DNA of 38,955 nt from a bacterium (GTDB lineage: Bacteria > Sumerlaeota > Sumerlaeia > MVZB01). The stretch covers positions 6,132 to 45,086 of the forward strand of contig JAMCWS010000349.1 of the NCBI GenBank assembly GCA_023480605.1, written 5' to 3'. A program made the translations under genes and the position numbers. Positions 1,231-32,368 of the stretch are shown piece after piece (positions within the stretch are counted from its first letter, which is position 1; every line of letters starts with the position of its first letter). The notes under the pieces were generated by a model. It saw nothing but the letters and a program-made list of their open reading frames with translations. It was not told where the DNA came from and searched no databases.

Positions 1231-1632
1231 CGATCTCTTGATCCTCCATATTCATTTTGACGCAAAGACGCGAAGACGCGAGGAAAAGGGAGTTGCGCAA
1301 GTTCGCGAATCCGTAGTGTAACTTGATGTCTGTAATTTGTGGTTGACCACCGCTGTGCCATTCGTAAGGGTTTATTCGACCATGAAAGAACCTGAAAGGA
1401 ACACAGCGATGGTCAAGTGCATGAGAGACCCGCGGGGGCCGCCAAGTCAAGCCTCGAACGAGCCGGGCGAGGGATTCTTCTTTTAACCAAGCCGCGGACA
1501 CCAATCAGGCGGAATAGACGGAAACCGCCGATGAGCGGCCGGCCACCTTTGATTTGCTGGGCGAGGCCAAGCAAGATACGCGGATCAGGATTCGTCGGCG
1601 CATGTTCTCCTTCAGTGGCAGATGATTTGAAA

Positions 1633-4644: not shown

Positions 4645-5026
4645 GTTTTCATGCTTTCCGAGAACCATGACGATCGACACAAACCTTACGAGACACGAAT
4701 CGATGTGATTAATCTTGCGTCTATGCGCCTTCGCGCCTTTGCGAGACAAACATCAAGCTGAAGCTTGAACTCCACACGGGTTTTCCAGCATGTCGGTTGC
4801 GGCTTCGCCGCGTTGTGCATTTGCCGAAATCGGTCTTCGTGACGACCCGTTCAATCCGCCGCCAGGATTGGGCGGCCAGCGAGTGACGGTCGAGCAGGCC
4901 AGCGGCTTCCCACGCGACGGGCGGTCGGTCCTAACGTTGCGCAATGAATGGCCGGCGCCTCACGACACGGATTGAAACTTGGTGTACAAGGATCTTGTGT
5001 CTCTTCCCAATTGAATTGATGGCCTA

Positions 5027-5869
5027 CTAGCCCCGTATTTTGCCGAGGAGTCCCCGAAGGTAATTCAAGTCGTCTTTGGTTCCTTCGGTCAGGGCTTCAA
5101 GCGTTCCTTCGTAGAAATGGTGTGTGCAGATGGGGCCCTGATAATCGATCTTTACGAGTTGGCCCAGGATGGCGGGCCAGTCGATCAGGCCTTCCGCCAG
5201 GCGCGTCCATTCCATTTTCCAGGTCAACTTGCGGGCTTGCTTGAGATTGGGACCCAGGAACCAGCCGCAGTTTTTGGTCACCACGTAAGCGAGGTGTTCC
5301 TGTAGTATATCGAGTGATTTGACCGGATCGGTCCACCCCTCCTGGTGCACCATGTTGCCTGGATCATAGTGAACGCCAATCCCTTTGGGATCACGGTCGT
5401 GAATGAGGAAATAAATCGCTTCGGGCGACCAGCAAAACCCCCCGCCATGGGTCTGCAGCAAGGCCTTAACGCCATATTTCAAGCCCAGTTTCTCGACCGT
5501 TTCCACTGATTGGCGGCAGCGGGCCAGGTCTTCGCGATACGTGTTGTATCCCCGGTAGTTCTGCATCCAGAAGCGAAACATCGTGATGCCGTTGTCGGCG
5601 AACAGGCGAAAGTCATCCTCGATCTTCGCCAAGTGATCATGGCTCCAATCGGTCGTCACGGTGTAAGCCTTGAGATTGCGACCGCGCATATAATTGACAA
5701 ACGCCGGAAGAGTATGAAAATAATCCTCTTCCTTGCACCATGATCCCGTACGGATCATAACATCGACACCGTCAAAGCCGCAGTCGATCAAGTGATCGGC
5801 CAATTGTTCCTGTTCCCTGAGGTGCGGATACTGGAACTTTGGGAAAAGTAGCACATCGGGGGCTTTCAT
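5027..5869 (-). CDS. Sugar phosphate isomerase/epimerase (xylose isomerase-like TIM barrel) family protein
   Basis: 280-aa ORF with AAAGGA 7 nt upstream of the ATG. Pattern: GFDGVDV.., ..LLQTHGG.., ..GVHYDPGN.., typical of the AP_endonuc_2/TIM-barrel family. Confidence 0.7.
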   Translation of the reverse strand: MKAPDVLLFPKFQYPHLREQEQLADHLIDCGFDGVDVMIRTGSWCKEEDYFHTLPAFVNYMRGRNLKAYTVTTDWSHDHLAKIEDDFRLFADNGITMFRFWMQNYRGYNTYREDLARCRQSVETVEKLGLKYGVKALLQTHGGGFCWSPEAIYFLIHDRDPKGIGVHYDPGNMVHQEGWTDPVKSLDILQEHLAYVVTKNCGWFLGPNLKQARKLTWKMEWTRLAEGLIDWPAILGQLVKIDYQGPICTHHFYEGTLEALTEGTKDDLNYLRGLLGKIRG

Positions 5870-14200: not shown

Positions 14201-14637
14201 ATTCCTATATCCCGGGCATGGGCTACAATCCGGATCCCATGAACGGTTTGAACCATATGGGTTTTTGCTCGGTGGCCGAATGGATATACCAAACCGCGAG
14301 CGGCATCCGTCCCGACCCCGCCTATCCCGCTTACAGGCGCATCCTCATCGCCCCCCGGTTTGACGGCCCGGTTGCAGGAGCAAGCGCCGTTTACCGCTCG
14401 GTTCGCGGACTGATCGCCAGTCAATGGCGTCGGGAAAACGGCAAGCTCTCGATCGAGGTGTCCGTGCCGCCCAACACCACGGCTCTTGTCCGTCTGCCGG
14501 CGGCCGAGCCTGATAAGGTTACCGAAAACGGCGCGCCGGCTGGCGAGTCCCCCGGTGTGGAGCTCATGGAATTTGAACAGGGATCTGCCGCATACAAGGT
14601 GCAATCAGGACGTTATATGTTTCAGTCCTTTGTATAA
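11257..14637 (+). CDS. Alpha-L-rhamnosidase (GH78) with an inserted F5/8 type C (discoidin)-like domain
   Basis: 1126 aa. LRCEYLVNPLGIDTDRPRFSWEI..RQTAFRILVASS..GEACYWKVRVW is the classic GH78 N-terminal domain. KWVQIDLGESMRFDGIMLHP...GRHIRLTALKH is discoidin-like. The N-terminus MLSRRVFIKSTGLIAG is Tat/lipoprotein-signal-like. Confidence 0.85.
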   Translation: MLSRRVFIKSTGLIAGMPILMNACPLRRTSPLKGYRMTMQTQISHLRCEYLVNPLGIDTDRPRFSWEIDDSRRGVRQTAFRILVASSAGALAGDGGDRWDSGRVNSDETLHIEYDGKPLASGEACYWKVRVWSTALDARARGPETVSAWSEPARFSIGLLRDTDWKAQWITAPEFIPDSPIHIGYMSKATDDPNEPKWVQIDLGESMRFDGIMLHPACGRRGVHPPGGEIPPGDGFPLRFLIEASDREDMHGSRVIVDRSTEDVSNPGKESYTVRFAETSGRHIRLTALKHGEFPFAGKSYLLKLAGMEVLAGKKNLAKGCRAIAFDTTEDLTAGYGISLLTAGKTGYDGGSRRRLRPAPLLRGEFECRKPVRRAMAYATALGNYELRINGSRVGDPHLAPGYEQYDRRVAVQAYDVTGLLRTGRNAAGAVLADGWYRSRYRLDGWDQFRDFAQGRFGDAIPRFLLQINIEYEDDARDTVGTDEMWTCSFDGPYRRTSMYDGIAYDARKEADGWSGPGFRAEGWTPAVVAPPPWSPYRWPQTAHPIARVREFKPVTIRQTARGTLVCDFGQGVGGMCRVTLDGPAGMTVKLHHAMALNPDGTLYTGSLWGARGNADAYTLKGRGPQTFEASFTFHGFRFVEISGLGTAGNLIDIAAVMIANDCPVTADLETSDARLNKLWTAILMTYLSCMKGALVDVADRDERWGWMGDCGTTHTQSLAYFFDMAAYYRKRCLDLMDDQSRDGYFPPQSPAMEAGGRSAVWSDAALTMAWSTWLNHADRRLLREIYPAIQRYVRRLKTNYESGLPLWPGHFGDWLSSSMTIRPGAKDWQEKGPAQLTADMLQKLSLIRAARLLGQIAGVLGDGRESAAMEAFAARVRRDPTILRLESPQLVQGAQTAYALALGWGIADPGQASLLFENLLRAIDDYEGNLTTGTISTTTLLNVLSDNGRHPLAYDLALKPAFPSFGYMIEQGATVIWERFDSYIPGMGYNPDPMNGLNHMGFCSVAEWIYQTASGIRPDPAYPAYRRILIAPRFDGPVAGASAVYRSVRGLIASQWRRENGKLSIEVSVPPNTTALVRLPAAEPDKVTENGAPAGESPGVELMEFEQGSAAYKVQSGRYMFQSFV

Positions 14638-17471: not shown

Positions 17472-20309
17472 ATGCCAACTGGTAATGTCTGCATGATTTT
17501 TAGAATCCTTACGGCGATGTTTCTCTCAGGTCGGCCCATGGGCCTTATCCTTGCCGCGATGATGCTGCTGACGGCTCGATCAGGCCACGGCGAGGCTACG
17601 GGCGGCCGGCCGGATTCGCCCCGCGTCAACCTCCTGGACGCGGCCGGAGCCGGCGTGTGGACGATCCAGAGACTCGACGCCACCAGCACGATGACGCTGG
17701 GCACGATCGACGGCGCGGGACGTCTGCCAGGCGGCGGCGGCTTAATTGCGCTGACCGCCCGTTTGCCTGTTGTCGGCCGCATATTGGCCGACCGCCAGGT
17801 GGCGGTCCACCCACGTCCCGGCGAGATTTATCGTTTTTCGGCCCTCGTCACCACGCGTGGCTTGCGCGATTCCCATGGCGATTCCCGTCCCAATCCCTAT
17901 CGCCTCAACCTTGGCCTTTCGGGCTGCTGCCTGGCGTTCAGCCAACTCGATGGCCGGGGACGGCCGCTGAGCGAAGTCGCTTCGCGCGTTGTGTTGGGCG
18001 TAAACGATGACGCGCCGCTGGCGCTCGAGACCGTGATCCAACCCGGCGCCGAGGTGCTCGCCGTGCAATGCCGGATGATCGGCGTGGCTGGCGAGGCGCG
18101 TTTTTCAGCTCCCGTGGTCGAGTGCCTGGCGCCGGCTGGCCTGTCCCCGCTGCCCGACGCGCGTATCGTCACCGGCACGATGGGCGCGCCCTTCCTGCAA
18201 GTCGACGGCCGGTCGATCCCCTGGTATGTCTATTTCGGCAACAATCAATTCGGCAAAGACGACGTCATCCTGGACGAAATGAAAAAGGCGGTCGGCGCCG
18301 GCGTGCGTATCGTCTCGTTCAACTTGCATCTACCCTGCACCGCCTCCAACGACGCCATCCTCGCGACGATCGGGCGTTTCCTGGATCCCCACCCCGGCGT
18401 CTATTTTTTACCGCGGGTCTGGGTGGGGCCGTATCCGGGCTGGCTCGAAAGCCGTCCGGGAGAAAAGGTGAGATACGCCGACGGCGCCACGACCCGATTC
18501 GCCTCGCCGGCGTCGGCCGCCTGGCGCGACTGTGCCGCCGCCAACCTTGAGGAATTGATCCGCCTTATCCGTCGCTCGCCTTACGCCGGACGCCTGATCG
18601 GCCTGATCCCCACCTACTACCAGACCGGCGAATGGATCGTCTGGGGGCCGGACCGGGCCGCCGGCTTCGAGACGCCCGTCCGCGGCGCCTTCGAGACCTG
18701 GCTGCGTCAACGTTATGGTTCGGTCGATCGCCTCGGCGCGGCATGGGGGCGCCCGATCGGCCGATTTCAGGACGCCGCCGTACCCGGACCCGAGGCGCGT
18801 GACGCCGCCCCGCTCGGATCGTTCCGCGATCCGATCGCCCAGCGCCCGGCCATCGATTTCGCGCGCTTTTACGGCCGGCTCGTACCGGGCCTGCTCGATC
18901 GCTTCGGCGCGGCGGTCCGGCGGGCGGGCGACGGCCGCGGCCTGACCGGCGCGTTTTACGGCTATACGTTCGAGATCGCCAATCTCATCCGCTGGCCGCA
19001 GAACTCGGGTCACCTGGGTTTGGACGAGTTTCTCGTCTCGCCAAACCTGGGCTTTTTCGGCAGCCCTTATTCCTACGATCCCGACAGCCGCGCCATCGGC
19101 TTGCCCGTCATGGTCCACGGGCCCAACGACTCCGGCCAACTGCACGCCAGACCGGCCATGATGGAAGAGGACACCTTCACCCACCTGGCCGAAAAACCCG
19201 GACCGGCTGCGATGGCTCCGGGTTATGCGCAACACACCACGGACTTGCCGCAGACGCTGGCCGTCCTCAAGCGCAATCTCGGCTGCGCCATCGCCCACGA
19301 TTACATTCTCACCTGGCAGAACCTTTTCAGCGAAGGTCGCTTCAACCAGCCTGAAATCTGGGACCAATACCGGCCCTACCTGGCCTGGCTGGCCGCGCGC
19401 GAGGGGTGCAAGCCGCCCTACCGCCCTCAGGTCGCCGTGGTGATCGACGAAGATGCCTTCGCCTTGCAACCCGCCGACGGCCGCGCCGTCAACGCGCGGT
19501 GGATCCATGAATTACGATCGGCCCTCGGTCGGCTCGACACGACGCTGGGCTTTTACCTTCAGTCCGACCTCGGCCGCATCCCGGATAGTGTCCGCTGCCT
19601 GATCCTGGTCAATCCCTACGCCATCACACCGGCCCAGCAGGAGGAACTACGCGCGCGTTGGATGAAAGACGGCCGGATGATCGTTTTCGGCTACCTGCCC
19701 AATGTGTTCGGCGACCGCGGCCTCGACGAACACGGAAGCGCCATCACCGGCATGAGACTCGCGCTGCACCGTGAGCCCATCGATATCGAATGCGCCGTCG
19801 AACCGAGGGGTGTGCTCGGGGAGTTCGCCGGGCAGCACTTCAGCAACTCCGCCGACCGCTTCAATCGCCATTGGTTTAAGGACGCTCGCCTGGGGCCGCT
19901 GGCGCCGTGGATGAGCGTCGATGATCCCCAGGCTGAAGTGCTCGCTCGCTACGCGGCCAATGGCCGGGGCGCCTGCGCTCTGGTGCGCATGCCCGGCTGG
20001 ATGTCGGTCTATCTCGGCGCGCCCGGCCTCACGCCGCCGATGTGGCGCCGTCTTCTGCGCGAGGCCGGCTGCCACTTTTTTCTCGACGATTTTTCCACGC
20101 GGTGGGATCACCCCGACGTGATCCAGGCGACCGATGATTTCCTAATGGTGCAAAGCGGCCGCGACGGCCTGCGCACCGTGCGGCTGCCCCGGCCCCGCGC
20201 CCGCGTCGAACGATTCGACGACACGCGTCGCCTGATCGCCCGCAACACGGATCGCTTCCGCGATGAATTCAAGGCCGGGGTGCCGGTGTTCTACGTGTTG
20301 GGCGACTGA
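17472..20309 (+). CDS. Large secreted glycoside-hydrolase-like protein, GH42-like (TIM barrel plus trimerisation-type domain), with an N-terminal extra domain; start uncertain
   Basis: 945 aa with a hydrophobic N-terminus (MGLILAAMMLLTA). ..FETWLRQRYGSVDRLGAAWGRPIGRFQDAAVP.. is the characteristic GH42-type string. ..RCLILVNPYAITPAQQEELRARWMKDGRMIVFGY.. resembles the GATase-like trimerisation domain. By eye only. Confidence 0.5.
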   Translation: MPTGNVCMIFRILTAMFLSGRPMGLILAAMMLLTARSGHGEATGGRPDSPRVNLLDAAGAGVWTIQRLDATSTMTLGTIDGAGRLPGGGGLIALTARLPVVGRILADRQVAVHPRPGEIYRFSALVTTRGLRDSHGDSRPNPYRLNLGLSGCCLAFSQLDGRGRPLSEVASRVVLGVNDDAPLALETVIQPGAEVLAVQCRMIGVAGEARFSAPVVECLAPAGLSPLPDARIVTGTMGAPFLQVDGRSIPWYVYFGNNQFGKDDVILDEMKKAVGAGVRIVSFNLHLPCTASNDAILATIGRFLDPHPGVYFLPRVWVGPYPGWLESRPGEKVRYADGATTRFASPASAAWRDCAAANLEELIRLIRRSPYAGRLIGLIPTYYQTGEWIVWGPDRAAGFETPVRGAFETWLRQRYGSVDRLGAAWGRPIGRFQDAAVPGPEARDAAPLGSFRDPIAQRPAIDFARFYGRLVPGLLDRFGAAVRRAGDGRGLTGAFYGYTFEIANLIRWPQNSGHLGLDEFLVSPNLGFFGSPYSYDPDSRAIGLPVMVHGPNDSGQLHARPAMMEEDTFTHLAEKPGPAAMAPGYAQHTTDLPQTLAVLKRNLGCAIAHDYILTWQNLFSEGRFNQPEIWDQYRPYLAWLAAREGCKPPYRPQVAVVIDEDAFALQPADGRAVNARWIHELRSALGRLDTTLGFYLQSDLGRIPDSVRCLILVNPYAITPAQQEELRARWMKDGRMIVFGYLPNVFGDRGLDEHGSAITGMRLALHREPIDIECAVEPRGVLGEFAGQHFSNSADRFNRHWFKDARLGPLAPWMSVDDPQAEVLARYAANGRGACALVRMPGWMSVYLGAPGLTPPMWRRLLREAGCHFFLDDFSTRWDHPDVIQATDDFLMVQSGRDGLRTVRLPRPRARVERFDDTRRLIARNTDRFRDEFKAGVPVFYVLGD

Positions 20310-20725: not shown

Positions 20726-23137
20726 TCACCGCTCAATCATCGCGACGCCGGCCGAATAAGCCGGCAGGCTGAAGCGGATGCGCGGTCCGTCGATGGTGAT
20801 CGGTACGTTTTCGGGTCGAACCGCATCGGGCGTGTCTAGCGTATTGCGCGCCGCGACCGAGCCGGGCGCGATCAGTTGCAGCCGGACCGACAACGGCCGG
20901 AAGCCCCCACGCAATCTCAGCGCCAGATCGACGTCCGAACCGCCGGGGTTTACGGCTTTGACCACGACCCTATTACCATCCTCGGTGCGGGTGGCGACGA
21001 TGTTGAGCGGTCCCGCGTTTCCCTCCAGCGCGATCCGCTCGGGGGCATAGTGATCGTGCCAGAGCTTCATGACGACATAATTGGGTGCCGGGAACCAACT
21101 TTTTTGATCGAAGTTGATGAAGGCATTATCCCATGCCGAAGCCGAAATATGGCGCAGGAAGAGAGCGGGCGAGGCCATCCCCACGAAGGTGCCGCAACGC
21201 TCGAAGCCATTGAGCAGTCCACCGCAATAAAGTCCTGTCCGCCAGTCGGTGCTCTGGGCGTTCCACTCCGAGACGAAAATTTTCAAGTTAGGGTTGGGCG
21301 AGTTTTTGATCTGGTTCTCGATGGTCGTGAGAAAGGCCTCGTAGCGGCGCGGATCTTCGGCATACTGGTCAGGATCTTCATAATGATGAATGCTATAATA
21401 GTCGGCCAGCGTCGCGCACTCGGGAATCACCACCCGATTCCAGCCGCCGATTTTGGGGCTATTGTCGTAATCGGCACACCCGCAGATGGCGATCTTGATT
21501 GTCGGATCGACTGCCTTGAGTGCGGGCACGAATTCCCTGACGATTCGGCAGTATTCTGACGCTCCTACCGGCCAGGTCTCATTGTCGATTTCCCAATACT
21601 TGACCCCGTACGGTTCGGGGTGGCCGTTCAGCGCCCTTACCTTGCCCCAGGTGGACTCTATCGGCCCATTGCAGTATTCCAACCATTGGCAGGCATCGCG
21701 AATGTATTTGCTTCGCGGCGTCGCCGGATCGTGCCGGCCAGTATTAATGACAATGAGCGGATCTGCCTTCAGGCGCCGGCACAGGGCGATGAATTCATCG
21801 GTTCCGAATGAGTTTACATCCTGGTCGTCCCAGATCACGATGGGGGATCTGACGCGCTTGGACTGGGGGCCTATGCCTTCTTTCCAGCGATAGCGTTCGG
21901 CGTAAGCTCCCCCAGGCCAGCGAATGACTGGAGGCCGCAAACCGGCAACCGCTGATATAAGGTCTGGACGGAAGCCTCCGTCGCGTCGCACCGACTCGGC
22001 CATAAGGCTCACTTGATCGATCCAAACGCGGCCTGCGCCCACCAGTTCAATCGCGAGTCTCGCATCAGGGGTGTCGGAATCAGCGGTCAGGCGAATGGGG
22101 TATTCCATCCATTCCGCGGCGTCGATCGGCGCCGGCAACATGCATACCGCAAGCGACTTCTCACCTTCCAGGAGCCGCACGCGAATCCCCGGCCGCGCTT
22201 TGCCCCGCACCCAGACCGAGCCGACATAGGTTTCGCCCTTGCGCACTTGGATCGGCCCTTCGGCGATACCCGTTGCGGCGCTTGCCGGCGCAAGGGCGTC
22301 GATTCGTGCGCAGATCGCGCCATTGAGTGGGTTTTCCTTGCTGCGCTGGCAGGTGCCGGGTCCGTAGGCCCGCCATCGATTCGGCTCCGGTTTGGCGGCA
22401 GGAACTTTCGGAAGCCCTTCAAATAAAACGCGGCCATCCAAAGCCGTTACACGCAGATTTCGGAAACTGGCCGTGGTTCCCCAAGTGCCGATGCCCACGC
22501 CTCCCGCCAAGACGGGATCATCTATATCGGTGAAGTCAATCGTTGGCTGGTCATTAATATGGATTTGGATATGTGAACCCTCACACCGTACCCTGATCCG
22601 ATACCACCGCTCAGCCTGGACGGATTGAACAGCCGCCGACCTGCATCTCTGGACATAATTCTCACCTTTCACTCCTGCGCGCATCAGGCCGCCCCACCCG
22701 CCGGTGTTATACCAGTAGAAGCGCTTGGTATCATGTCGGCGGAAAATAATCAGGAGGCAATCTTGGCCATCGTCTTGACGGGTCTCGAGTGTATACTCAT
22801 AGTCAGTCCAGGTGGGATCGCCAAATGACTGACAAAGCCGGATTCCAAGGCTCTGCTGACGCAGGACATTCCCCTCGGCGACCCAGTGACCGCCGGCACC
22901 GCCCAAATACTGGGATAGATTCTCGAAACTGCGGTCGAAGACCAGTTCGCCCCACAGGCCGCCGTTGGCAGAGCGGTAAATGTGTTCGAGGAAATGGCCG
23001 TAGATTTTCGGATCGATCTGGTTGAGCACGATTTGCGGATCGACTGAAAGAGATATTTCGGCGGCCGTCGTTCCCGCCAGTTGAGTCGTCATCAGGATGC
23101 CTTCCAGAATCAACCAGCGGATGGATCGCGCCCTCAT
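20726..23137 (-). CDS. Alpha-L-arabinofuranosidase (GH51) with inserted DUF1080/LamG-like and CBM4_9-like beta-sandwich domains
   Basis: IYGHFLEHIYRSANGGLWGEL, IRWPGGAYAERYRWKEGIGP and YWEIDNETW are GH51 signatures. The start was moved to ATG 23137 because GGAGGA lies 5 nt upstream; the track start is 23158. The N-terminus is signal-like. Confidence 0.8.
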   Translation of the reverse strand: MRARSIRWLILEGILMTTQLAGTTAAEISLSVDPQIVLNQIDPKIYGHFLEHIYRSANGGLWGELVFDRSFENLSQYLGGAGGHWVAEGNVLRQQSLGIRLCQSFGDPTWTDYEYTLETRQDDGQDCLLIIFRRHDTKRFYWYNTGGWGGLMRAGVKGENYVQRCRSAAVQSVQAERWYRIRVRCEGSHIQIHINDQPTIDFTDIDDPVLAGGVGIGTWGTTASFRNLRVTALDGRVLFEGLPKVPAAKPEPNRWRAYGPGTCQRSKENPLNGAICARIDALAPASAATGIAEGPIQVRKGETYVGSVWVRGKARPGIRVRLLEGEKSLAVCMLPAPIDAAEWMEYPIRLTADSDTPDARLAIELVGAGRVWIDQVSLMAESVRRDGGFRPDLISAVAGLRPPVIRWPGGAYAERYRWKEGIGPQSKRVRSPIVIWDDQDVNSFGTDEFIALCRRLKADPLIVINTGRHDPATPRSKYIRDACQWLEYCNGPIESTWGKVRALNGHPEPYGVKYWEIDNETWPVGASEYCRIVREFVPALKAVDPTIKIAICGCADYDNSPKIGGWNRVVIPECATLADYYSIHHYEDPDQYAEDPRRYEAFLTTIENQIKNSPNPNLKIFVSEWNAQSTDWRTGLYCGGLLNGFERCGTFVGMASPALFLRHISASAWDNAFINFDQKSWFPAPNYVVMKLWHDHYAPERIALEGNAGPLNIVATRTEDGNRVVVKAVNPGGSDVDLALRLRGGFRPLSVRLQLIAPGSVAARNTLDTPDAVRPENVPITIDGPRIRFSLPAYSAGVAMIER

Positions 23138-23844
23138 CGTAGTCCTCCATCTTGTCATGGGGTCATCCTAATTCCACCCAAAGCTTCACTCAATGTACAT
23201 TCGGCGTCGCTCGATACTTGACAGAGCGTCAGATGGCCGCGCAGGCATCTTACCCGCGCCTTGGTTTCGACCATGGCGATTCTCATCACTCGTGGGGCGA
23301 CCGCACCTCGGATTGACCGACTTCACTTCGCCGGGAGTTCAACCCGCACGGGAATGAATTGAGCGCCTTTCCTACCGCTTGCACACACACAGCCCGTCTT
23401 CACGGCGCCGGCGACAGGCCCTCCCAGCGCACGAGCCAACGGCCGCCCTCGGGGGAACCCGGGGGCGGGGCGGTCGGGCGCGCTAACCCAGCCGGTCGCC
23501 ATCATCGCCGCGGCGTAGAGCAGGCCGCCGTTGGACGGGAAATAGGGGAAAGGGCCGCCCGTGCTGCAGCCGTTGGCCAGAAACCGGTTGCGCGGCGAGT
23601 CCTAGAGGATCGCGTTTGTGGTCACTGCTGGTTGGCCGCTGCCGTGGGTGCGGAGTTCGTCGGCTCGTGCGACGGAATGGGAAAAACTCGCCCTCGTCCA
23701 GGTCCCCGATGTCGATCCCGCCGGGCATGGGGCCGATCTTGACCTTTCATGCTGGCGCGGCGCTTCGGCGGATTCGTCTTTCCAATTCGATAGTCCCGAT
23801 CCAACATGACAAGCCGGATGAATCACGATGGGCCATTGCCGGAA

Positions 23845-23874
23845 GCCGAATCGAAAGCCAATGAACGATTCGGC
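23845..23874. promoter_or_regulatory. Perfect 9-bp inverted repeat (gccgaatcg N12 cgattcggc) 37-66 nt upstream of the sigma-factor start; candidate operator or 5' hairpin
   Basis: Read directly: gccgaatcg at 23845-23853 and cgattcggc at 23866-23874. Its function is unknown. Confidence 0.3.
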
Positions 23875-23910
23875 CGGCGGCGGTGTCATGGATTGTAGAG
23901 GGAGTCACGC

Positions 23911-24513
23911 GTGCGATTCGACGACGAGTTGATGCGCCAGATCATGGAACGGGCTTCGGCGGCGACGGACGCTTTCGAGACGCTTTTTCGCCGCCATGGC
24001 GAAATGATTCGCCGTTTCGTGCGCCGCATCGTACGGGATTCGGACGCGGCCGAGGACGTGGCTCAGGAGGTGTTTCTGCGCGTCTGGACGCGCGCCGAGC
24101 AATGGCAGGGGCGCGGTCCGGTCAAGGCGTGGCTCTACCGGGTCGCCCAGAATCTGGCTCTCAACAGCATGCGTTCAGCCCGGCGCCACCGGTGCGAGTC
24201 GCTGGACAGGGCCGCCGAGGCGGCGCTGGATGACGACGACGTTCCGCAGGGTTGGCTCGTCGACGCCGCGGCGCTGGGACCCCACGAGGTTGCCGCAGAG
24301 GCCGAGCGCTATGCCCTTGTGCGCCGACTTGTGGACAGTTTGCCCGACGACAAGCGTGAGGTCGTGCGGCTGGTGACCGACGAGGACCTGGGCGCGGCCG
24401 AGGCGGCGCGGCGGCTGGGGATTCCCGAGGGCACAGTCAAGTCGCGCTTGCATTACACAACCCGGGAACTGGCCACTAAATGGAAGGAATTGGAGAAGGG
24501 GGAATCCGAATGA
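23911..24513 (+). CDS. ECF-type (group 4) sigma-70 family RNA polymerase sigma factor
   Basis: GTG start with GAGGGAG 6 nt upstream. Region 2: AEDVAQEVFLRVW...WLYRVAQNLALNSMR. Region 4: LPDDKREVVRLVTDEDLGAAEAARRLGIPEGTVKSRLHYTTRELA. The TGA at 24511-24513 overlaps the ATG of the next ORF. Confidence 0.9.
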   Translation: MRFDDELMRQIMERASAATDAFETLFRRHGEMIRRFVRRIVRDSDAAEDVAQEVFLRVWTRAEQWQGRGPVKAWLYRVAQNLALNSMRSARRHRCESLDRAAEAALDDDDVPQGWLVDAAALGPHEVAAEAERYALVRRLVDSLPDDKREVVRLVTDEDLGAAEAARRLGIPEGTVKSRLHYTTRELATKWKELEKGESE

Positions 24514-27500
24514 ACATGGCACCCGATCTCTCGACGCCCTGGCATAGGGCTTCTTATGAGGCATTTCTGCACGAGCGGTTGCCGCAACTGCTTGGCGAGC
24601 GGCTGCCGCTGGCCAGTTACCGCGTGGAGTACATGAGCGACCGCTCGTGCCGTATCGTCCTGTCGCTCGCGATGCAAACGGGTGACGTGCCGCTCGACTT
24701 TGCCGGCCTTCCCCAACCGGATGACGAAGGGATCTTCATGATCGACGGCACGAAGCGCGTGGTCGTGCCCTTGGCGTCATCGGAGGATCTGAGCGCGGCC
24801 GAGGTCCGGTGTGTCGGAGAGCAGCTTTACAGCTTCATCGAGGCGCGCCTCGGGCAGGTTGGCGCCGACATGCCCGCCGATCCGTCATTGCTGCGGGCGC
24901 TCGTGCCTTTGGATAAGTGGTTCGCGGAATTTTTCTTAATGGGGCTCATTTATGAAGACGCAAGCGAACCAAAGGTGATCCATCCGACATCCCAGGCGCT
25001 TGACGTAACGAATTGGCTGGCGACTCAAACCCACCTGCGCCGAATCCTGATCGAGAATCCCCACTCGGTGATTCACCCCGGCCAGATGGGGCGCGCTTGC
25101 CCGTTCGAGACGCCCGAAGGCCCAAACATCGGTCGGGTGCTGTCGCTCGCATGCGGAGCAACCATCCGTAACGGCAAAATTATCGTGGTCGATGATGCGC
25201 CCGCGGCGGCCCTGGGCCTGACGGCGTCGATGGTGCCGTTCGTTGAACATGACGACGCCAATCGGCTCCTCATGGGTGTCAACATGATGCGCCAGTGGCA
25301 GGTGCCGCTCGAGCCCGAACCGGCGCTGGTTCAGACCGGCAAAGAACCGAGCGCGGCGGGGTTCTGGTGCGGCGTGAATCTCCTCACCGCCTTTGTATCC
25401 TGGGGGGGCGACACTTACGAGGATGGACTGCTCATCAGCGAGTCGTGCACGCGTCGATTCCGGTTCGAGCATCCGGTGGAGCCGGGCGACAAGCTCAGCA
25501 ATCGCCACGGACAAAAGGGCGTCATCAGCCGCATCGCCCCTGACGACGAGATGCCCCATCTGGCCGACGGAACGCCCGTGGAACTGGTCTGCAATTTCAT
25601 CGGCCTGCACTCCCGGATGATCTTCGGGCAGGTGTGCGAAGCCCTCGCCGGCCGGATCGCGCGCGCCGAGGGGACGCCCGTGGTCGCGCCGCCCTTCCAC
25701 GCGCCAAATGTGGACGAATTGCGCGAACGCCTGAGGCGCGCGGGACTGCCCGCCTCAGGCATGGAAATCCTTACGATTGGCAAAGATGGCCCGCCGCTTC
25801 AGCGGCCAAGCACCATCGGCTGGATTTACTGGGGCCGGACGGTCCACGATGTGCGCACGAAGCTCCACACCTTCGTGTCGACGCCGGGCGAAGGGCAAGA
25901 ACAAGGGGAACTTGAATACTACGCGTTGCGCGAGGCGGGCGCGTTCGAGAACGTGGCCGAATCTTTCAACACCCGTTCGGCAAGGCGTTCTGACGCCGCA
26001 ACACTCGCCGCGCGCCTGGCCGCCGGCCCGGTCGAACAGGCTCCGCCGCCGCCGCCATGGTTTGCAGACCTCATGAGCCGACTCGCCGCCGCGAGCATCA
26101 AGGCGACGCTCGATGAGGAGAAGCTGCATTTCAAGATGGCCGCGCCTTCCGAGCCGGCGCTCACGTTGGCCCGTCCGTTGCCCCACCCCTGGCTGGCGGA
26201 AATTGAAGTCGCCGCGGTCGGCGTCCGCGAGAACGACCCGTTCTACCACGCCCTGGCGCAGGCCAATGCGCGCGCCGAGCGGGCCCTGGCGTCCGGAGCG
26301 CCCGAGGTTCTCACGCACCAGACCCTCCACCAGCTTCGTAAACGCTTGACCGACTATTTCGATGGTCTGGTCCCTCACGAGATCATGCTTCCGAGTGAAA
26401 GGAATCTGTTCAGCGGCCGGTCGGTCATCATTCCGGGCGGGGATCTGACGTTTGAACAGGTCGGTCTGCCCGAGGGGATGGCGTGGGAGCTATTCGGACC
26501 GATTCTGGCGCGCGAGATGGGCGATTCGCAGGAAATCGCAAATCGGACGCCACGGGTCGCCGCAGCTCTCGACAAACTCATGGCCCGCTCGTGGGTCGTT
26601 GTCAATCGCCAGCCCTCGTTCTGGGCCGCGAGCCTGTTGGCCTTCCATCCGGTGCGCGTGCCGGGGCGGGCCATCCGACTGCATCCCCTCGCGTGCCCCT
26701 TGCTCAATGCCGACTTTGACGGCGACCCGGTTGCCGTCTTCCTGCCCATCACCGAAGCCGCCCAGCGCGAGGCCGGCGAACGGCTGAGTGTTGTGGGCCA
26801 GTTGCGCCGTGATCCGGAGCGGCTCCTGCCCTGGCTTTGCCCAACCCAAGATGCGTTGTGGGGCCTTGCCGCGCTCAGTTTCGATGCGGCCCGACGCGAC
26901 GAAATCCGCCGTTTGACAGGCGCCGATCTCATCGGCGCGGAGGGCTTCGTCACGCGCGCGTCGCTGATCGAAGGCCTTCGCGCCATTCATGAAGCCGAAG
27001 GTCCCCAGCGCGCACTTCAGGTCAGCGAGGCACTGATGCGACTCGGCATGCGCATCGCCAAAGAGAGCGGCGCTTCGTTTAGTCCCTTCTTCGGCGAGAG
27101 CGTCAGCCGCCCGCCCCTTCCCGCAATCGATCGCCGTGAGGAGTGGCTTGACACCTGCGCCGATCTGACCGAGCGAATCGCCTCACGCGTCGACTACGAC
27201 GCCGCGGACCTGGGGCCACAACTCTTGGCCGTGAAGAGCGGCGCGCGGGGCAATCTTCAGCAGCTGGTCAGCCTTCCCGGCACGCCGGGAGTCGTCATCG
27301 ACGGGGCCGGGGGCTTCGTTCCCGTGCATCGCGGCTTCGCCGAAGGGCTCCGGCCCGAGGATGCCTTCGCCCGCGTCTTCGGCGCGCGTCTGGGTTTAGC
27401 CCGGGTGCTTCTGGAACCGGCCAGCCTCTGGCATGCCTATGCCGTCGAGCATCCCGGGCCGTCGAAGGGCTTTAATGTCCTCGCGCGCGCCATGCGCGCC

Positions 27501-27602
27501 CGTCGCCCCGGCGTCGTCTTCGCCCGCGCCGCGGCCATCGGCGAGATCGACCCCCTCGCCGATCTCGACAGCCGGCTGCTGGTAGGCTTGCCGGCGAAAT
27601 AA
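24510..27602 (+). CDS. Miniature single-chain RNA polymerase-like protein: fused RpoB(beta)-like and RpoC(beta')-like catalytic cores, 1,030 aa
   Basis: The ORF is intact. ATG 24510 sits in an ATGA overlap with the sigma stop, with gaaggggga upstream. Beta and beta' signature motifs occur in the canonical order (see the motif features and findings). TAA at 27600-27602. Confidence 0.9.
   Translation: [1030 protein letters not shown]
25107..25133 (+). other. RpoB-type ETPEGPNIG motif inside the mini-RNAP
   Basis: Translates exactly to ETPEGPNIG, in the context [26 protein letters not shown] (compare bacterial RpoB HP.[18 protein letters not shown].SL). Confidence 0.9.
25242..25265 (+). other. 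RpoB-type (V)EHDDANR motif inside the mini-RNAP
   Basis: Context [28 protein letters not shown] (compare RpoB ..[24 protein letters not shown]). Confidence 0.9.
25485..25520 (+). other. RpoB double-psi beta-barrel motif GDKxxxRHGxKG inside the mini-RNAP
   Basis: [12 protein letters not shown] is followed by [37 protein letters not shown] (compare RpoB GDKMAGRHGNKGVISK...[22 protein letters not shown]). Confidence 0.9.
26232..26366 (+). other. Beta' clamp-helix (coiled-coil)-like segment, the canonical primary sigma region-2 docking site
   Basis: [45 protein letters not shown] aligns by eye to E. coli beta' ..[46 protein letters not shown]. Similarity is weaker than for the catalytic motifs. 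Confidence 0.55.
26706..26726 (+). other. RpoC catalytic Mg-binding motif NADFDGD inside the mini-RNAP
   Basis: aat gcc gac ttt gac ggc gac, in the context [28 protein letters not shown] (compare RpoC [28 protein letters not shown]). Confidence 0.95.
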
Positions 27603-27719
27603 CGCGCAACCGGCCGCTTGATTTCCGGTTTAAAAGTCGCCTCCATCTTTACTTATAATCATAGGCGATGACGATGCTGAACGCGTCACGCCGCTATCCA
27701 TCGCTGAAAGGAGGGCCCA

Positions 27720-27785
27720 ATGATGGTCAACGTAACGATTGACATTGCCCAATTCCGGAGTGAAGCCAGGTGGAGCCGGGCCTAG
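27720..27785 (+). CDS. Candidate 21-aa small ORF (MMVNVTIDIAQFRSEARWSRA) downstream of the mini-RNAP
   Basis: A near-consensus SD (AAAGGAGGG) lies 5 nt upstream of ATGATG; TAG at 27783-27785. There is no other support. Confidence 0.2.
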   Translation: MMVNVTIDIAQFRSEARWSRA

Positions 27786-28097
27786 GGCGGTCGCTTCAGC
27801 AAAAGACCTGTCGCAAGCCAAAGCCGGACGGTGGCGCGCCGCGCCATTTGTTTGTGGCGGCTTGCGAAGCGCGAGCTTTGTCCGACCGCGGCATTCCCCA
27901 TGCCGTGGCGGTCAATGCTGTCTTTTCTGATCCCGCCTTTTGTCCGCTCCCGCTGTCTTTTCACAGCATCGCCTGAGCTTCGCTCTATGGGAAACGGCCC
28001 GGCCGGGGTGCGCATGGGGGAAGCCTTGTCTTCCGCCGTCGCGCCCCGGCCGGTTTGCCTGCTCAGTTGCTTTTGAAAAGACAGGAATACCCGATCG

Positions 28098-30349: not shown

Positions 30350-32368
30350 TCATTCGTAATCCAGCCATTCGCGCGAAGCGCTCTGCGTCGTCAGGTAGAC
30401 GGGCGTATTGAGAACGAGCGAGACGACCCGGCGGCGGACGACGTTCGGGCCGGCCGTATAGCCGAACGTGTAAGTGATCGAGCCATCGGGGACGAGGGTC
30501 GCGTAGATCGCCCCGGCGGGCAGCACGGCGAGTGGTGAAATACCGCCGTCGCCGCCGAATTCAACGCGGCGCGTGAACCCGCCAAGCTGGAGAGGCTGCG
30601 CGTAATCGCGATCGCCGACGCCAAGGGTCGGCAAGGCCAGGTCGCCGCCCGATATGTTGATGTAAAATAACACGCTGAAACCCGGGTAAGTATCGGACAA
30701 TCCCGCCGGGCCGACGCTGCGGCGCACCAGCGCGACCGTTGCCCCGCTTGGGGCGGTGCTGGTGATGGCGGCGAACTCGGGCGAGGCCGCCGTGTAACCA
30801 TCGAGCAGACCGAAGGCCTCCGGTCCGCCCGCGAGTGCCACGATGTAGGGCGTTTCTCCGCCGTCGGCCAGGAAGGGATTGCGAATGCGGCTGCCATAGA
30901 CTGGGGTCATCGTCACGCCGGTCGTTGAGCCGTCATATGACTGGACGGTGCTTGAGCCGAAAAGAAACCGGCCGATGCCGCCATTCGGCGTCCCGCCAGA
31001 GACGTCGATCCCGCAGCCGGCGCTGGTGATCGTGGTGGCGGCCAGTTTGATGGCGCCCCCGCCGCCGCCCCCGCCGCCGCCGCCACCACCGCCTTTGCCG
31101 CCCGCCGCGCCGTCGCCGCCATTGCCGCCGGCCCCGCCGTGACCGCCGGACCCGCTGGAGCCGTCTCCGGGTTTGCCGGAGGCGCCGACGGTGCCTGGCG
31201 CCCCCGCGATTCCCATAGAGCCGTCTTTGCCCGGCTCGCCCGATTCTCCGGCGTCGCCCCTGGCAAGAAGGTGCGCCGCCACGGTCATGCGGCCGCAAAC
31301 GATAATTTCAAGCGCCCCGCCACCGGCGCCGCCGGCGCCGGCGATCCCGCCGATGCCGCCGTCGCCTCCCAGATCGCCGTTGCCGCCGTCACCCCCGGCG
31401 CCCCCGGCGCCCCCGGCGCCCGTAAAGCCACTGCCGCCCCCGCCGCCACCCCCGCCGCCGCCGGCGCCGTTGCCGCCATAACCCCCGCCACCCCCGCCGC
31501 CGCCGCCCGAACCGCCGCTGCCGCCGCCACCGCCGGAGATCGTATCGCCGGTGCCGGTGTTGATGCCCGGAGTACCCTGCTGACCATTTGTCCCGCCTTT
31601 GCCGGGCGAGCCGTTCTGACCATCACCCCCTTTGCCGCCGCTGCCGCCATTGGTTCCGGCGAAGAAGACATACGCGCCGCCGCCGCCGCCACTGCCGCCC
31701 TGGCCATGTACGCCGGAGTCTCCCGCCGCGCCGCCGGCGGGTCGACTCACGAGGGACGAACCGCCACTCCCGGGGGAATTGACGCCGTCCTGTCCCGGAT
31801 CACCGAGGAAACCATCGACGCCATCACCGGCCGCGATTTGCGCCTCTGCCGTCGCCAACGCGCCTATCTGGCCGGATGTGCCGTTGGCGGCGGTAACGCC
31901 GTGGCCACCGGCGCCCCCGATTGAGATGTCTACGGTGTAAATATAGCCGCCGAATCCTATTGAGCCGTACTGGCCATGGATTCCCCCGGCGCCGCCGCCG
32001 GGACCGGGAATGGGCCCGTTGGCCGAAGCGTCGAAAACGACGCCGGCCGGGATGGTGGCTTGGCCCCCGACAAAGAGCGACACGGGACGCGAACCCATGA
32101 GCGTTACGGTGTCGGTGGCCGCCAGCGATAAGTCTCCGGCGATGTAAAAGCGGGCGATATTGTCTTCGACGCGCGCCTTGAACGGCACGCCGTTGAACGT
32201 CGCCGGATTGCTGTCGGTATCGCCCGTAATCGTCAGGTCGGTTGAGTTGATGACGATATCGGCGCCCGCGACTCGGGAAGGCGCACCGAACCCGGCGATG
32301 GTTGCGAGGGCGACCAAACCCCAGCGCAGCGGGATCGTGCATTGGACAAGGTTGGTTCTGTTGATCAT
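30350..32368 (-). CDS. Secreted glycine-rich repeat protein with collagen-like (G-X-Y) and PGRS-like (GGxGG) tracts
   Basis: 672 aa with GGGGGAA 8 nt upstream of the ATG and the signal-like string LRWGLVALATIAGFGAPSRVAG. The central roughly 315 aa are dominated by Gly, e.g. GEPGKDGSMGIAGAPGTVGASGKPGDG and GGAGGAGGDGGNGDLGGDGGIGG. The N- and C-terminal domains are non-repetitive. Confidence 0.75.
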   Translation of the reverse strand: MINRTNLVQCTIPLRWGLVALATIAGFGAPSRVAGADIVINSTDLTITGDTDSNPATFNGVPFKARVEDNIARFYIAGDLSLAATDTVTLMGSRPVSLFVGGQATIPAGVVFDASANGPIPGPGGGAGGIHGQYGSIGFGGYIYTVDISIGGAGGHGVTAANGTSGQIGALATAEAQIAAGDGVDGFLGDPGQDGVNSPGSGGSSLVSRPAGGAAGDSGVHGQGGSGGGGGAYVFFAGTNGGSGGKGGDGQNGSPGKGGTNGQQGTPGINTGTGDTISGGGGGSGGSGGGGGGGGGYGGNGAGGGGGGGGGGSGFTGAGGAGGAGGDGGNGDLGGDGGIGGIAGAGGAGGGALEIIVCGRMTVAAHLLARGDAGESGEPGKDGSMGIAGAPGTVGASGKPGDGSSGSGGHGGAGGNGGDGAAGGKGGGGGGGGGGGGGAIKLAATTITSAGCGIDVSGGTPNGGIGRFLFGSSTVQSYDGSTTGVTMTPVYGSRIRNPFLADGGETPYIVALAGGPEAFGLLDGYTAASPEFAAITSTAPSGATVALVRRSVGPAGLSDTYPGFSVLFYINISGGDLALPTLGVGDRDYAQPLQLGGFTRRVEFGGDGGISPLAVLPAGAIYATLVPDGSITYTFGYTAGPNVVRRRVVSLVLNTPVYLTTQSASREWLDYE
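31058..32008 (-). repeat. Low-complexity GGN-codon repeat region encoding the Gly-rich core
   Basis: Long runs of gcc/gcc/ccc on the + strand, e.g. 31040-31140 and 31300-31530. The + strand mirror frames give poly-Pro and poly-Ala ORFs. Confidence 0.85.

Follow-up and report, generated by a model that had tools for sequence, protein, structure and literature searches.

The window analysed here, the whole stretch of 38,955 nucleotides, carries on its plus strand an ECF-type promoter, a gene for a dedicated ECF sigma factor and a gene for a miniature RNA polymerase in which beta and beta' are fused. The promoter, TGAACGATTCGGCCGGCGGCGGTGTC (23862..23887), has the form TGAAC-N14-CGGTGTC, a pattern matched with zero mismatches nowhere else in the window; TGAAC represents the -35 element, and the -10 element, CGGTGTC, ends 23 nt before the start codon of the sigma gene. 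That gene (23911..24513, GTG start) encodes 200 aa comprising region 2 at aa 25-92 (Pfam Sigma70_r2, E 3e-19) and region 4 at aa 136-187 (Sigma70_r4_2, E 5e-11), confirming the adjacent sigma factor mentioned in an earlier note on this DNA; in NCBIfam it falls within the sigma70-ECF superfamily, under all equivalog cut-offs. The polymerase gene follows as an uninterrupted open reading frame (24480/24510-27602), in which the ATG at 24510 agrees with the family-consensus N-terminus and yields a protein of 1,030 aa and ~115 kDa (24510..27602). Polymerase start and sigma stop codon overlap in the tetranucleotide ATGA, and some 8 nt upstream of this start lies the Shine-Dalgarno-like sequence GAAGGGGGA.

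Judged from its sequence, the encoded protein is a drastically reduced bacterial beta-beta' core. The Pfam domains RNA_pol_Rpb2_3 (aa 162-219, E 6e-10) and RNA_pol_Rpb2_6 (E 5e-37) precede the beta' domain RNA_pol_Rpb1_2 (E 2e-19), all above gathering score; NCBIfam also gives significant matches for both halves, and a sequence search of the PDB retrieves bacterial beta (E 1e-46) and beta' (E 1e-32 to 1e-34). The earlier note had described RpoB-like signatures followed by RpoC-like ones in one reading frame, an account these matches bear out; the motif strings it quoted all lie at the expected positions, with zero internal stops, and its figure of ~38% of the combined length of E. coli beta and beta' comes to 37.5% when measured. 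The structure prediction it proposed gave a confident AlphaFold model (pLDDT 90.8, pTM 0.88) that folds as one compact unit and has bacterial beta and beta' as its top structural matches, so that strong matches to both large subunits, in profile and in fold, stand where their lack had been named as one danger to that account. Across 40 aligned family members (mean identity ~53%), D735, D737, D739, K328, R332, H333, G334 and R700 never vary and K336 and N733 almost never do; the three Mg-binding Asp residues and two beta Lys residues, and with them both double-psi beta-barrel halves in beta-then-beta' order, are present in a single chain, as had been suggested. R700 and N733 align with beta' R425 and N458, which we take to contact the ribose hydroxyls of the NTP.

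The chain can be followed along both parent subunits. A beta N-terminal remnant (aa 1-145, 24510..24944), in which the family HMM aligns weakly to beta 119-147, contains a 13-residue motif equivalent to E. coli beta 131-143, and a low-confidence linker marked by a drop in pLDDT (aa 146-158) occupies the place where the beta lobe would stand. The beta fork and rifampicin-pocket region together with a 10-residue motif (aa 160-283, 24987..25358; beta 490-581 and 652-708) has an 11-residue deletion in fork loop 2 and retains, in the pocket, equivalents of Q513, D516, H526 and R529, with Leu as the equivalent of S531. Alignments and the secondary structure of the model define the beta double-psi barrel core (aa 284-345, 25359..25544), which includes E304/D305 (beta E813/D814) and a 12-residue beta motif (aa 326-337) whose K328/K336 correspond to beta K1065/K1073; only ~11 residues are found at the usual flap insertion point. 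The beta C-terminal regions (aa 346-537, 25545..26120) correspond to beta 1075-1147 and 1178-1342, the latter reaching the end of beta. The beta' clamp helices (aa 575-620, 26232..26369; beta' 266-310) form a helical hairpin within one HMM block of 135.6 bits spanning beta' 266-513; they align weakly to M. smegmatis beta' 339-396, are modelled as helices at aa 577-594 and 599-620, and have N586 and P598 invariant in the 40-member alignment. Just upstream of the beta' barrel the chain has lost the rudder and retains a shortened switch 2; the barrel region itself (aa 629-790, 26394..26879) bears FSGRSV, NRQP (with R700) and NADFDGD (aa 733-739, 26706-26726). The F-loop and bridge helix (aa 867-971, 27108..27422; beta' 720-821) are marked by an 11-residue motif, FAEGL, FGARLGLA and a predicted helix at aa 949-968 in the bridge-helix region. 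The protein ends in a tail (aa 985-1030, 27462..27599) modelled at pLDDT 90-96, with E1012, R1022 and G1026 invariant in the same alignment; its likeness to the first trigger helix comes from inspection of the consensus (a 12-residue string and, further on, SRLLVG, set against a 21-residue reference string) by eye rather than from a scored alignment.

Comparison of the family HMM with beta and beta' indicates that the beta lobe, the entire flap, the lid, the rudder, the jaw and most of the beta' clamp have been dispensed with. The second trigger helix is absent as well, and no equivalent of the trigger-loop catalytic His was seen in the polymerase. The clamp helices, on which sigma region 2 canonically docks, survive the deletion of almost all other parts of the clamp. 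Their predicted docking surface for sigma is non-canonical, because the family consensus has A, A and R at the positions of beta' R275, E295 and A302, residues that presumably matter for sigma70 binding. To our knowledge, sigma region 4 is held by the tip helix of the flap in all holoenzymes described so far.

The association of the two genes is a property of the family at large. In 76 of 80 loci the gene immediately ahead of the polymerase gene encodes a sigma orthologue (40-54% identical); a contig end interrupts three of the other four. Reverse sampling from the sigma side found the polymerase gene next in 6/6 orthologues. The genes overlap or are separated by no more than 30 nt in 53 of 75 loci, and the distance matrices of the two proteins correlate with r = 0.92. 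When the neighbourhoods of orthologues were compared, as the earlier note had advised, only the sigma gene and the promoter were found conserved beside the polymerase, with no anti-sigma or any other conserved gene near the pair. The promoter is conserved ahead of the pair across phyla: of 72 loci, 63 have the dyad TGAAC-N17-TGTC upstream of sigma (68 when matching is relaxed), and scanning 1.07 Mb with a PWM produced 66 matches, against 3 in shuffled sequence, amounting to about one per locus, upstream of sigma. Six loci used for independent validation contained exactly one promoter match each, again upstream of sigma. No targets beyond the module itself were found by the PWM scan in the 1.07 Mb of flanks or among the listed matches of a metagenome scan. 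At one locus (L045) the same promoter stands immediately before the polymerase gene without an intervening sigma gene, and in another lineage (L022) cargo genes are inserted behind the promoter.

Gene order and overlap of this kind are the usual layout of a sigma factor and its anti-sigma, and the fused protein, occupying the usual anti-sigma slot, might be a core mimic that binds sigma through its clamp helices and controls how much of it reaches the host core, any catalysis being secondary or vestigial. The retention of those helices, and the lack of a conserved anti-sigma gene in the neighbourhoods compared, would agree with such a regulator. We nonetheless regard it as very improbable: the catalytic and substrate-contacting residues examined show no or almost no variation between phyla, the bridge helix and F-loop are likewise conserved, a two-barrel fold of 1,030 aa far exceeds what a sigma-binding decoy needs, and the promoter of L045 drives the polymerase alone.

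The polymerase family was found in 203 of 185,579 species-level genomes, representing at least eight phyla, with a conserved length of about 990-1,100 aa and no annotation other than hypothetical protein. Hundreds of assemblies produced independently (ENA, JGI, NCBI, Logan) show the same architecture and length. The earlier note had raised the prospects of an assembly chimera and of fragments left by degraded rpoBC genes; this architecture is common to over 200 independent assemblies, and the homologues are full-length and conserved in length. Recurrence, intact frames, invariant key residues and the confident fold rule out an artefact or a pseudogenised, internally deleted rpoBC, for which no supporting evidence was found and whose probability we consider negligible. 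The family tree crosses phylum boundaries in places, with a Verrucomicrobia sequence placed inside Anaerolineae, and Latescibacterota and Planctomycetota are each split.

Such crossings, the patchy distribution, the self-sufficient design and the cargo genes of the L022 lineage could all be accommodated by a module of some unrecognised virus, plasmid or other mobile element, captured or still mobile and serving the element rather than the cell, by analogy with yeast linear plasmids, which encode an Rpb2::Rpb1 fusion of their own. However, conservation is confined to two genes and a promoter, with no integrase, transposase, replication or structural gene accompanying them in the neighbourhoods compared, and the flanks are ordinary chromosomal, metabolic genes that vary by lineage and are syntenic within Poribacteria. 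No full-length match to the polymerase was found in IMG/VR, PLSDB or GenBank phages, and the sole viral structure covering both halves is 9% identical, in keeping with the earlier impression that known single-chain enzymes are more diverged. Because of these flanks and the absence of a full-length viral, plasmid or phage match in those collections, the pair reads as something other than a mobile-element gene set, and we consider a mobile origin of this kind improbable.

Overall, these findings are best reconciled with a self-contained, sigma-dependent, minimal single-chain RNA polymerase that drives its own operon, a reading drawn from sequence comparison to which we assign a probability only slightly above one half (about 0.52). 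Its module would consist of three parts, the ECF-type promoter, the dedicated ECF sigma factor and the polymerase. Region 2 of sigma would dock on the retained beta' clamp helices, and the complex would recognise TGAAC-N14-CGGTGTC and open the DNA; RNA would then be made at the two-barrel site by NADFDGD, the lysines of GDK...KG, E304/D305 and the bridge helix, elements whose key residues are all present and, in the family, invariant or nearly so. Since beta and beta' are covalently joined, neither an alpha dimer nor omega should be required for assembly. The only target identified is the operon itself, implying positive autoregulation, and further targets, if any, would be located in other parts of the genome. 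Bound to the polymerase, sigma would be withheld from the host core enzyme, which would insulate the system from host transcription. The suggestion of an autonomous or orthogonal enzyme, free of alpha-mediated assembly, gains strength from the sigma partner, from the clamp helices that have been retained and from the conservation of the promoter.

Several features weigh against a sigma-dependent enzyme acting on its own operon. The flap, as the anchor of sigma region 4, is wholly absent; the canonical ECF spacing of -35 and -10 equally fits the host core carrying sigma; elements that deal with duplex DNA and RNA exit are missing (lobe, jaw, most of the clamp, lid, rudder) or shortened (fork loop 2, switch 2 in part); and the second trigger helix is lacking and the docking surface on the clamp helices is atypical. 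The same promoter geometry and the same losses, together with the lack of a regulon in the 1.07 Mb of flanks and among the listed metagenome matches, would suit a division of labour in which sigma and the host core fire the operon, and the fused enzyme works independently of sigma on a different kind of template (single-stranded DNA or RNA, for instance), in priming, RNA copying or the making of signalling or defence RNA, by analogy with QDE-1-type and YonO-type enzymes. The shortening of switch 2 bears on this, as switch 2 and the funnel have been argued in a review to distinguish DNA-dependent enzymes (PMC2919709). Yet a division of labour would leave unexplained why the clamp helices alone were retained out of the clamp, and why the two genes are so frequently coupled in translation; the sigma subfamily was never met apart from the polymerase, sampling from either side, and a yeast plasmid enzyme with similar losses still transcribes double-stranded DNA (PMC6211774). 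We hold this alternative to be unlikely.

A literature search found no description of a sigma-linked miniature polymerase, and the self-contained enzyme proposed here can be set beside several known systems. Second RNA-polymerase-type genes beside a housekeeping set are represented by rpoB(R) of Nonomuraea and the alternate beta' of Beggiatoaceae, which are unfused, single-subunit paralogues for which the parts of the accounts consulted mention no dedicated sigma (PMC5431353, PMC4679880). The rpoB-rpoC fusions of Helicobacter and Wolbachia (NF007172, NF011417) are bacterial and share the covalent beta-then-beta' order, but are complete housekeeping enzymes; their models, of 2,839-2,890 positions, uphold the statement in the earlier note that such fusions are full length, whereas the present polymerase, shorter by about 62%, reaches 179-210 bits where the cut-offs stand at 4,632-5,372. 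The non-virion RNA polymerases of jumbo phages (phiKZ, AR9) are likewise reduced, of beta/beta' type and without alpha and omega. They use a dedicated promoter-specificity subunit that is distantly related to sigma. This subunit is not, however, a bona fide sigma70-family ECF factor, and the enzymes consist of four or five unfused polypeptides, phage-encoded and far more diverged (for general background on such multisubunit polymerases, see PMC7598289, PMC5449584). Similar in design are YonO of the Bacillus prophage SPbeta and its relatives, which, in the portions of the descriptions available to us, place both barrels in one chain of ~100 kDa, lack alpha, omega and the flap insert, are phage-encoded, have very distant homology to cellular beta/beta', and have no sigma-family partner mentioned (PMC5467207; PMC7824862); the present polymerase, in contrast, matches bacterial beta (E 1e-46) and beta' (E 1e-34) in sequence, gave no full-length match among GenBank phages and is paired with sigma in 76 of 80 loci.

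A further parallel is the RNA polymerase of the yeast cytoplasmic linear plasmids (killer plasmids, VLE), K2ORF6p with K2ORF7p. The former is likewise a single chain, ~980 aa long, with Rpb2(beta) preceding Rpb1(beta'); it lacks the lid, the rudder, the greater part of the clamp and further peripheral elements, and the enzyme has no alpha-like subunits (PMC2919709; PMC6211774). That enzyme is eukaryotic, plasmid-borne and nearest to poxvirus enzymes; a separate small subunit holds its C-terminal beta' regions, and it relies on a UCS promoter with a capping enzyme and a helicase, without sigma (PMC6211774). According to Iyer et al. (PMC7824862), it retains the flap insert that the present family has lost. 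Compared by description, the present family is instead bacterial-type and chromosomal, linked to an ECF sigma factor and to no conserved third gene.

The + strand is open throughout 24480-27602, and from the ATG at 24510 it encodes 1,030 aa in one uninterrupted ORF, as the earlier note had claimed; the motif strings quoted there were all found at their places, with zero internal stops. This start agrees with the N-terminus of all relatives in the family alignment, shares an ATGA overlap with the stop codon of the upstream sigma gene, and has an SD-like GAAGGGGGA in front of it. The further proposal that beta and beta' regions follow one another in a single chain is borne out by Pfam, where RNA_pol_Rpb2_3 (aa 162-219), RNA_pol_Rpb2_6 (E 5e-37) and RNA_pol_Rpb1_2 (E 2e-19) match in that order, all above gathering scores. 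In a sequence search of the PDB, E-values were 1e-46 for bacterial beta and 1e-32 to 1e-34 for beta', and bacterial NCBIfam models outscore archaeal ones (rpoB, 181.8 vs 150.9 bits; rpoC, 128 vs 54 bits). All scores nevertheless lie far under the equivalog cut-offs (181.8 vs 801 for rpoB, 128 vs 963.5 for rpoC, and 179-210 vs 4,632-5,372 for the rpoBC fusion models), and by this measure the fused polymerase is placed outside canonical RpoB/RpoC, including the full-length RpoBC fusions. Natural fusions of that kind are indeed full length, as stated in the earlier note, their NCBIfam models spanning 2,839-2,890 positions. Both catalytic barrels are recognizable at the residue level: K328 and K336 align with K1065 and K1073 of E. 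coli beta (GDKxxxRHGxKG), identifying the beta-type barrel, and NADFDGD at aa 733-739 provides the DxDxD metal-binding triad of the beta'-type barrel. Among 40 aligned family members, whose mean column identity is 53%, residues K328, R332, H333, G334, R700, D735, D737 and D739 are invariant, and K336 and N733 are conserved in at least 90%.

An AlphaFold2 model made with the family alignment has a mean pLDDT of 90.8 and a pTM of 0.88, from which a single folded unit is predicted for the chain; low confidence is confined to aa 146-158 and 971-982. In Foldseek, this model is matched best in the PDB by bacterial and plastid beta, with a TM of 0.40-0.44 over the query, and by beta' at about 0.32, viral structures being poorer, with one phage "minor tail protein" covering both halves at 9% identity. 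Alignment of the family profile to the E. coli subunits was used to map the elements kept and lost. Of beta, the segments retained are 119-147 (weakly), 490-581, 652-708, 788-824, 1055-1147 and 1178-1342, the last reaching the end of the subunit; missing are the lobe (148-489), 11 residues of fork loop 2, and the entire flap including the flap-tip helix (825-1054), at whose insertion point about 11 residues are left, as seen in both the alignment and the model. Of beta', a single block (266-513; 135.6 bits) runs from the clamp helices through a switch 2 of reduced length to the NADFDGD-bearing barrel, followed by a weakly aligned 589-639 and by 720-821, comprising the F-loop and the bridge helix, a segment that also aligns with M. 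smegmatis beta' 761-867 and whose bridge helix forms aa 949-968 of the model. The zipper and zinc-binding domain (beta' 1 to about 235), the lid and the rudder (a 25-residue gap) are absent, as are the jaw and complete trigger loop, with everything past about 821 (825-1407) lacking a counterpart save for the C-terminal tail. This conserved tail of 28 residues, which contains an invariant R1022, is read by eye from the family consensus as the first trigger helix.

The clamp helices, which align with beta' 266-310 and form a helical hairpin in the model, are kept although nearly the whole of the remaining clamp has been lost, a striking contrast. Sigma region 2 is known to dock primarily on these helices. 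The rifampicin pocket (aa 161-181, nt 24990-25052) has also been kept in part: the equivalents of Q513, D516, H526 and R529 are present, and the S531 position is occupied by Leu in both the window protein and the family consensus. S531L is a classic high-level rifampicin-resistance change.

A search of 5.8 billion proteins recovered more than 120 full-length relatives (1,002-1,067 aa, 49-59% identity) from ENA, JGI, NCBI and Logan assemblies, which, where named, are almost always called "hypothetical protein". Exhaustive profile searching delimited roughly 60 full-length clusters at 50% identity above about 800 bits, with a clear score gap below the family and with canonical subunits and full-length fusions scoring no more than 446 bits. 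No natural fusion of sigma to polymerase was present among the best 150 representatives, the longest member listed there being 1,101 aa. In a scan of one genome per species, the family was present in 203 of 185,579 species, in phyla that include Poribacteria, Latescibacterota, Planctomycetota, Hydrogenedentota, Armatimonadota, Verrucomicrobiota, Gemmatimonadota and, through Anaerolineae, Ktedonobacteria, Caldilineae and Chloroflexia, Chloroflexota; several carriers are closed chromosomes of 4-8 Mb, and closed genomes with the module include OZ252149.1, OZ242036.1, OZ242315.1 and OZ252228.1. An assembly artefact or a decaying rpoBC gene is excluded by this widespread full-length family and by the invariance of catalytic residues over 40 members. 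The family tree is partly phylum-coherent with several cross-phylum placements, which suggests vertical descent supplemented by horizontal transfer.

The sigma gene directly upstream (23911-24513, + strand) encodes 200 aa with regions 2 and 4 only, the organization of ECF (group 4) factors, and matches Sigma70_r2, Sigma70_r4_2 and TIGR02937 (95.9 bits vs a cut-off of 42.9); it falls below every NCBIfam equivalog cut-off and so belongs to no named NCBIfam subgroup. An orthologue of this sigma (40-54% identical) lies on the same strand directly upstream of the polymerase in 76 of 80 loci, and in three of the exceptions the locus is cut by a contig end. The association holds from the other side as well: searching with sigma yielded many orthologues at 48-60% identity, and behind each of the six that were sampled, on long contigs, lies a gene for a protein of 989-1,107 aa with Rpb2_3, Rpb2_6 and Rpb1_2 domains, in neighbourhoods that all differ. 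The two genes overlap or lie within 30 nt of each other in 53 of 75 loci, and their pairwise distance matrices are correlated at r = 0.92. All-against-all clustering of flanking ORFs of at least 70 aa identified sigma and polymerase as the sole conserved genes, the remainder reflecting lineage-specific synteny; within 6 kb on each side of 81 loci this revealed no conserved third subunit or anti-sigma, nor any conserved alpha- or omega-like gene near the module. No cognate anti-sigma, common but not universal in ECF systems, is conserved here, and the sole conserved partner is the fused polymerase. In one locus, from a Chthonomonadaceae MAG (L045:5142-5233), the promoter and an SD stand directly before the polymerase ATG (5219) without an intervening sigma gene; the only sigma-like match in this locus is weaker, on the opposite strand and about 4 kb off.

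When the 260 nt upstream of sigma were searched for dyads, TGAAC-N17-TGTC, equivalent to TGAAC-N14-CGGTGTC, came up in 63 of 72 loci (68 under relaxed matching), the window copy lying at 23862-23887. The motif usually ends 17-24 nt before the sigma start codon and is followed by an SD-like AGTAGAGG. This conserved AAC (-35)/GTC (-10) arrangement is a predicted autoregulatory promoter; both its use and the core enzyme that would use it are inferred. A PWM derived from these sites gave 66 matches in 1.07 Mb compared with 3 in shuffled sequence, essentially all being the single site before the module; scanned on both strands of that sequence (80 loci plus the window), it located no further site in the 6 kb flanking the module on each side. 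In six loci that came independently from the sigma search it has exactly one match apiece, just upstream of sigma. When metagenomes were scanned with a stringent form of the pattern, the matches, at least 120, included 22 modules and 72 sites inside long open frames, the latter attributed to chance in coding sequence; among the matches listed from this noisy scan, no target other than sigma came up repeatedly. Two individual loci deserve mention. In a Chloroflexota MAG (OZ242293.1; L022:1476-5340), a 3.75-kb insert right after the -10 element of the module promoter contains two ABC-transporter genes (ATG 1569-3422 and 3419-5227), and about 15 nt (GTGGTTGCAGTGTC.TA) are duplicated again just before sigma; as the insert is absent from its close relatives (L025, L026, L029, L036 and L037), one lineage has put cargo genes under the module promoter. 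In the metagenome contig L241, an oriented match at 135 is nearly identical to the promoter of L252, a true module start, and the 1.4 kb after it are unrelated sequence that lacks a sigma gene; this may be a disrupted module or a second target.

The other genes of the window are ordinary chromosomal ones, encoding carbohydrate-active enzymes, oxidoreductases and a two-component system. A phage or plasmid origin was rejected, as IMG/VR, the PLSDB plasmids and GenBank phages contain zero full-length counterparts of the fused polymerase. Derivation of the module from some mobile element is possible, at long odds, and finds no support in associated element genes. Two IMG/VR contigs considered as fusions (L083:4728-12779 and L142:4346-10491) were rejected in turn, proving to be distant multi-gene loci for beta/beta'-like phage polymerases with 25-26% identity over parts of both halves. 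A role as a defence system was likewise dismissed, as in PADLOC the polymerase has no match and sigma only a weak one, to an HTH. Rfam identified nothing in the window, and DNA downstream of the polymerase gene is not conserved beyond close relatives. With searches of flanks, downstream DNA, RNA and mobile collections all empty, the unit resolves to promoter, sigma and polymerase.

Some further features of the window are recorded here in their own right. Right after the polymerase stop codon (27630-27786, + strand) lies a sigma70-like TTAAAA-18-TATAAT, then a strong SD (GAAAGGAGGG) and a 21-codon ORF (27721-27786), an arrangement not conserved in other loci. On the - strand, 30350-32368 encodes a 672-aa glycine-rich repeat protein with long GGxGG runs, in a region of 74% G+C, and has no Pfam match. 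A 945-aa ORF (17472-20309, + strand), also without a Pfam match, lies among glycoside-hydrolase genes, its neighbours including a rhamnosidase (11257-14637), an arabinofuranosidase-like gene (20726-23158) and an NPCBM protein (1633-4749).

The two-barrel active site, the retained clamp helices, the obligate and often translationally coupled sigma, and the ECF promoter are together most readily reconciled with a two-protein holoenzyme, to which, taken as a whole, we assign a probability of about 0.5. Sigma would dock on the retained beta' clamp helices, and the resulting holoenzyme would initiate at TGAAC-N14-CGGTGTC and transcribe its own operon, the covalent beta-beta' fusion removing the need for alpha and omega. 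The main counter-argument is that the flap tip, which to our knowledge anchors sigma region 4 in all known holoenzymes, is absent while the promoter spacing is canonical. These features would also suit a rather unlikely alternative in which the host core uses this sigma at the promoter and the fused enzyme does something else. That the fused polymerase might instead be a pure sigma sink is quite improbable because its catalytic residues are invariant; any binding of sigma by it would, however, also titrate sigma from the host core. Extending the holoenzyme reading, we propose, tentatively and at somewhat less than even odds, that promoter, ECF sigma and 115-kDa enzyme constitute a natural, self-contained orthogonal system in at least eight phyla. 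No smaller sigma-dependent RNA polymerase of the cellular (two-barrel) type would then be known, and this one would start transcription from a specific promoter on double-stranded DNA with no alpha, omega, flap or lobe, with most of the clamp missing and the trigger loop incomplete, and independently of the host core.

Should the enzyme work in this way, it would show by natural experiment which parts a cellular-type polymerase needs, at a minimum, to recognize a promoter with sigma and to make RNA; among the parts it could do without would be the anchor that the flap tip offers to sigma region 4, the alpha scaffold and most of the clamp. The working assumption that each bacterium has one core RNA polymerase would then no longer hold, at least in Poribacteria, Planctomycetota, Chloroflexota, Latescibacterota and other phyla, whose module-bearing genomes are expected to carry ordinary rpoA, rpoB, rpoC and rpoZ as well. 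From a practical perspective, the three parts of the module take up about 3.8 kb together and make a compact expression system that could operate orthogonally to host transcription. The fused polymerase might also be insensitive to several antibiotics whose binding sites it has lost or altered, one example being the Leu that it naturally carries in place of S531 in the rifampicin pocket.

In our assessment, the fused polymerase forms a new family among the two-barrel polymerases, and its arrangement with a partner is new as well. A full-text literature search, with some subscription papers and supplements beyond its reach, turned up no account of a miniature beta-beta' fusion that is bacterial, chromosomal and linked to a sigma; prior mention is possible in Iyer and Aravind 2012 (J Struct Biol) or in the supplements of the ECF reclassification, both outside that search. 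YonO-like enzymes (PMC5467207, PMC7824862) resemble the fused polymerase in having both barrels in one polypeptide of about 100 kDa, but are described as phage-borne and far more diverged from cellular beta/beta', whereas the present family has strong bacterial beta/beta' similarity and a chromosomal, non-phage context. The jumbo-phage enzymes, unlike the fused polymerase, are split. The closest functional analogue is K2ORF6p of yeast linear plasmids, an Rpb2::Rpb1 fusion of about 980 aa in beta-then-beta' order. That enzyme has lost clamp, lid and rudder, and is eukaryotic, poxvirus-like and without a sigma (PMC2919709, PMC6211774). The two share order, size and pattern of loss, a resemblance by description rather than by sequence comparison. 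The yeast system also has a separate small subunit, K2ORF7p, with C-terminal beta' regions, whereas the loci of the fused polymerase have no third conserved gene; nor are its linear-plasmid context, capping enzyme and helicase met with at these loci. Overall, the module bears on how two-barrel polymerases shrink, as a bacterial parallel to the yeast plasmid enzyme in which a similar reduced core was reached independently.
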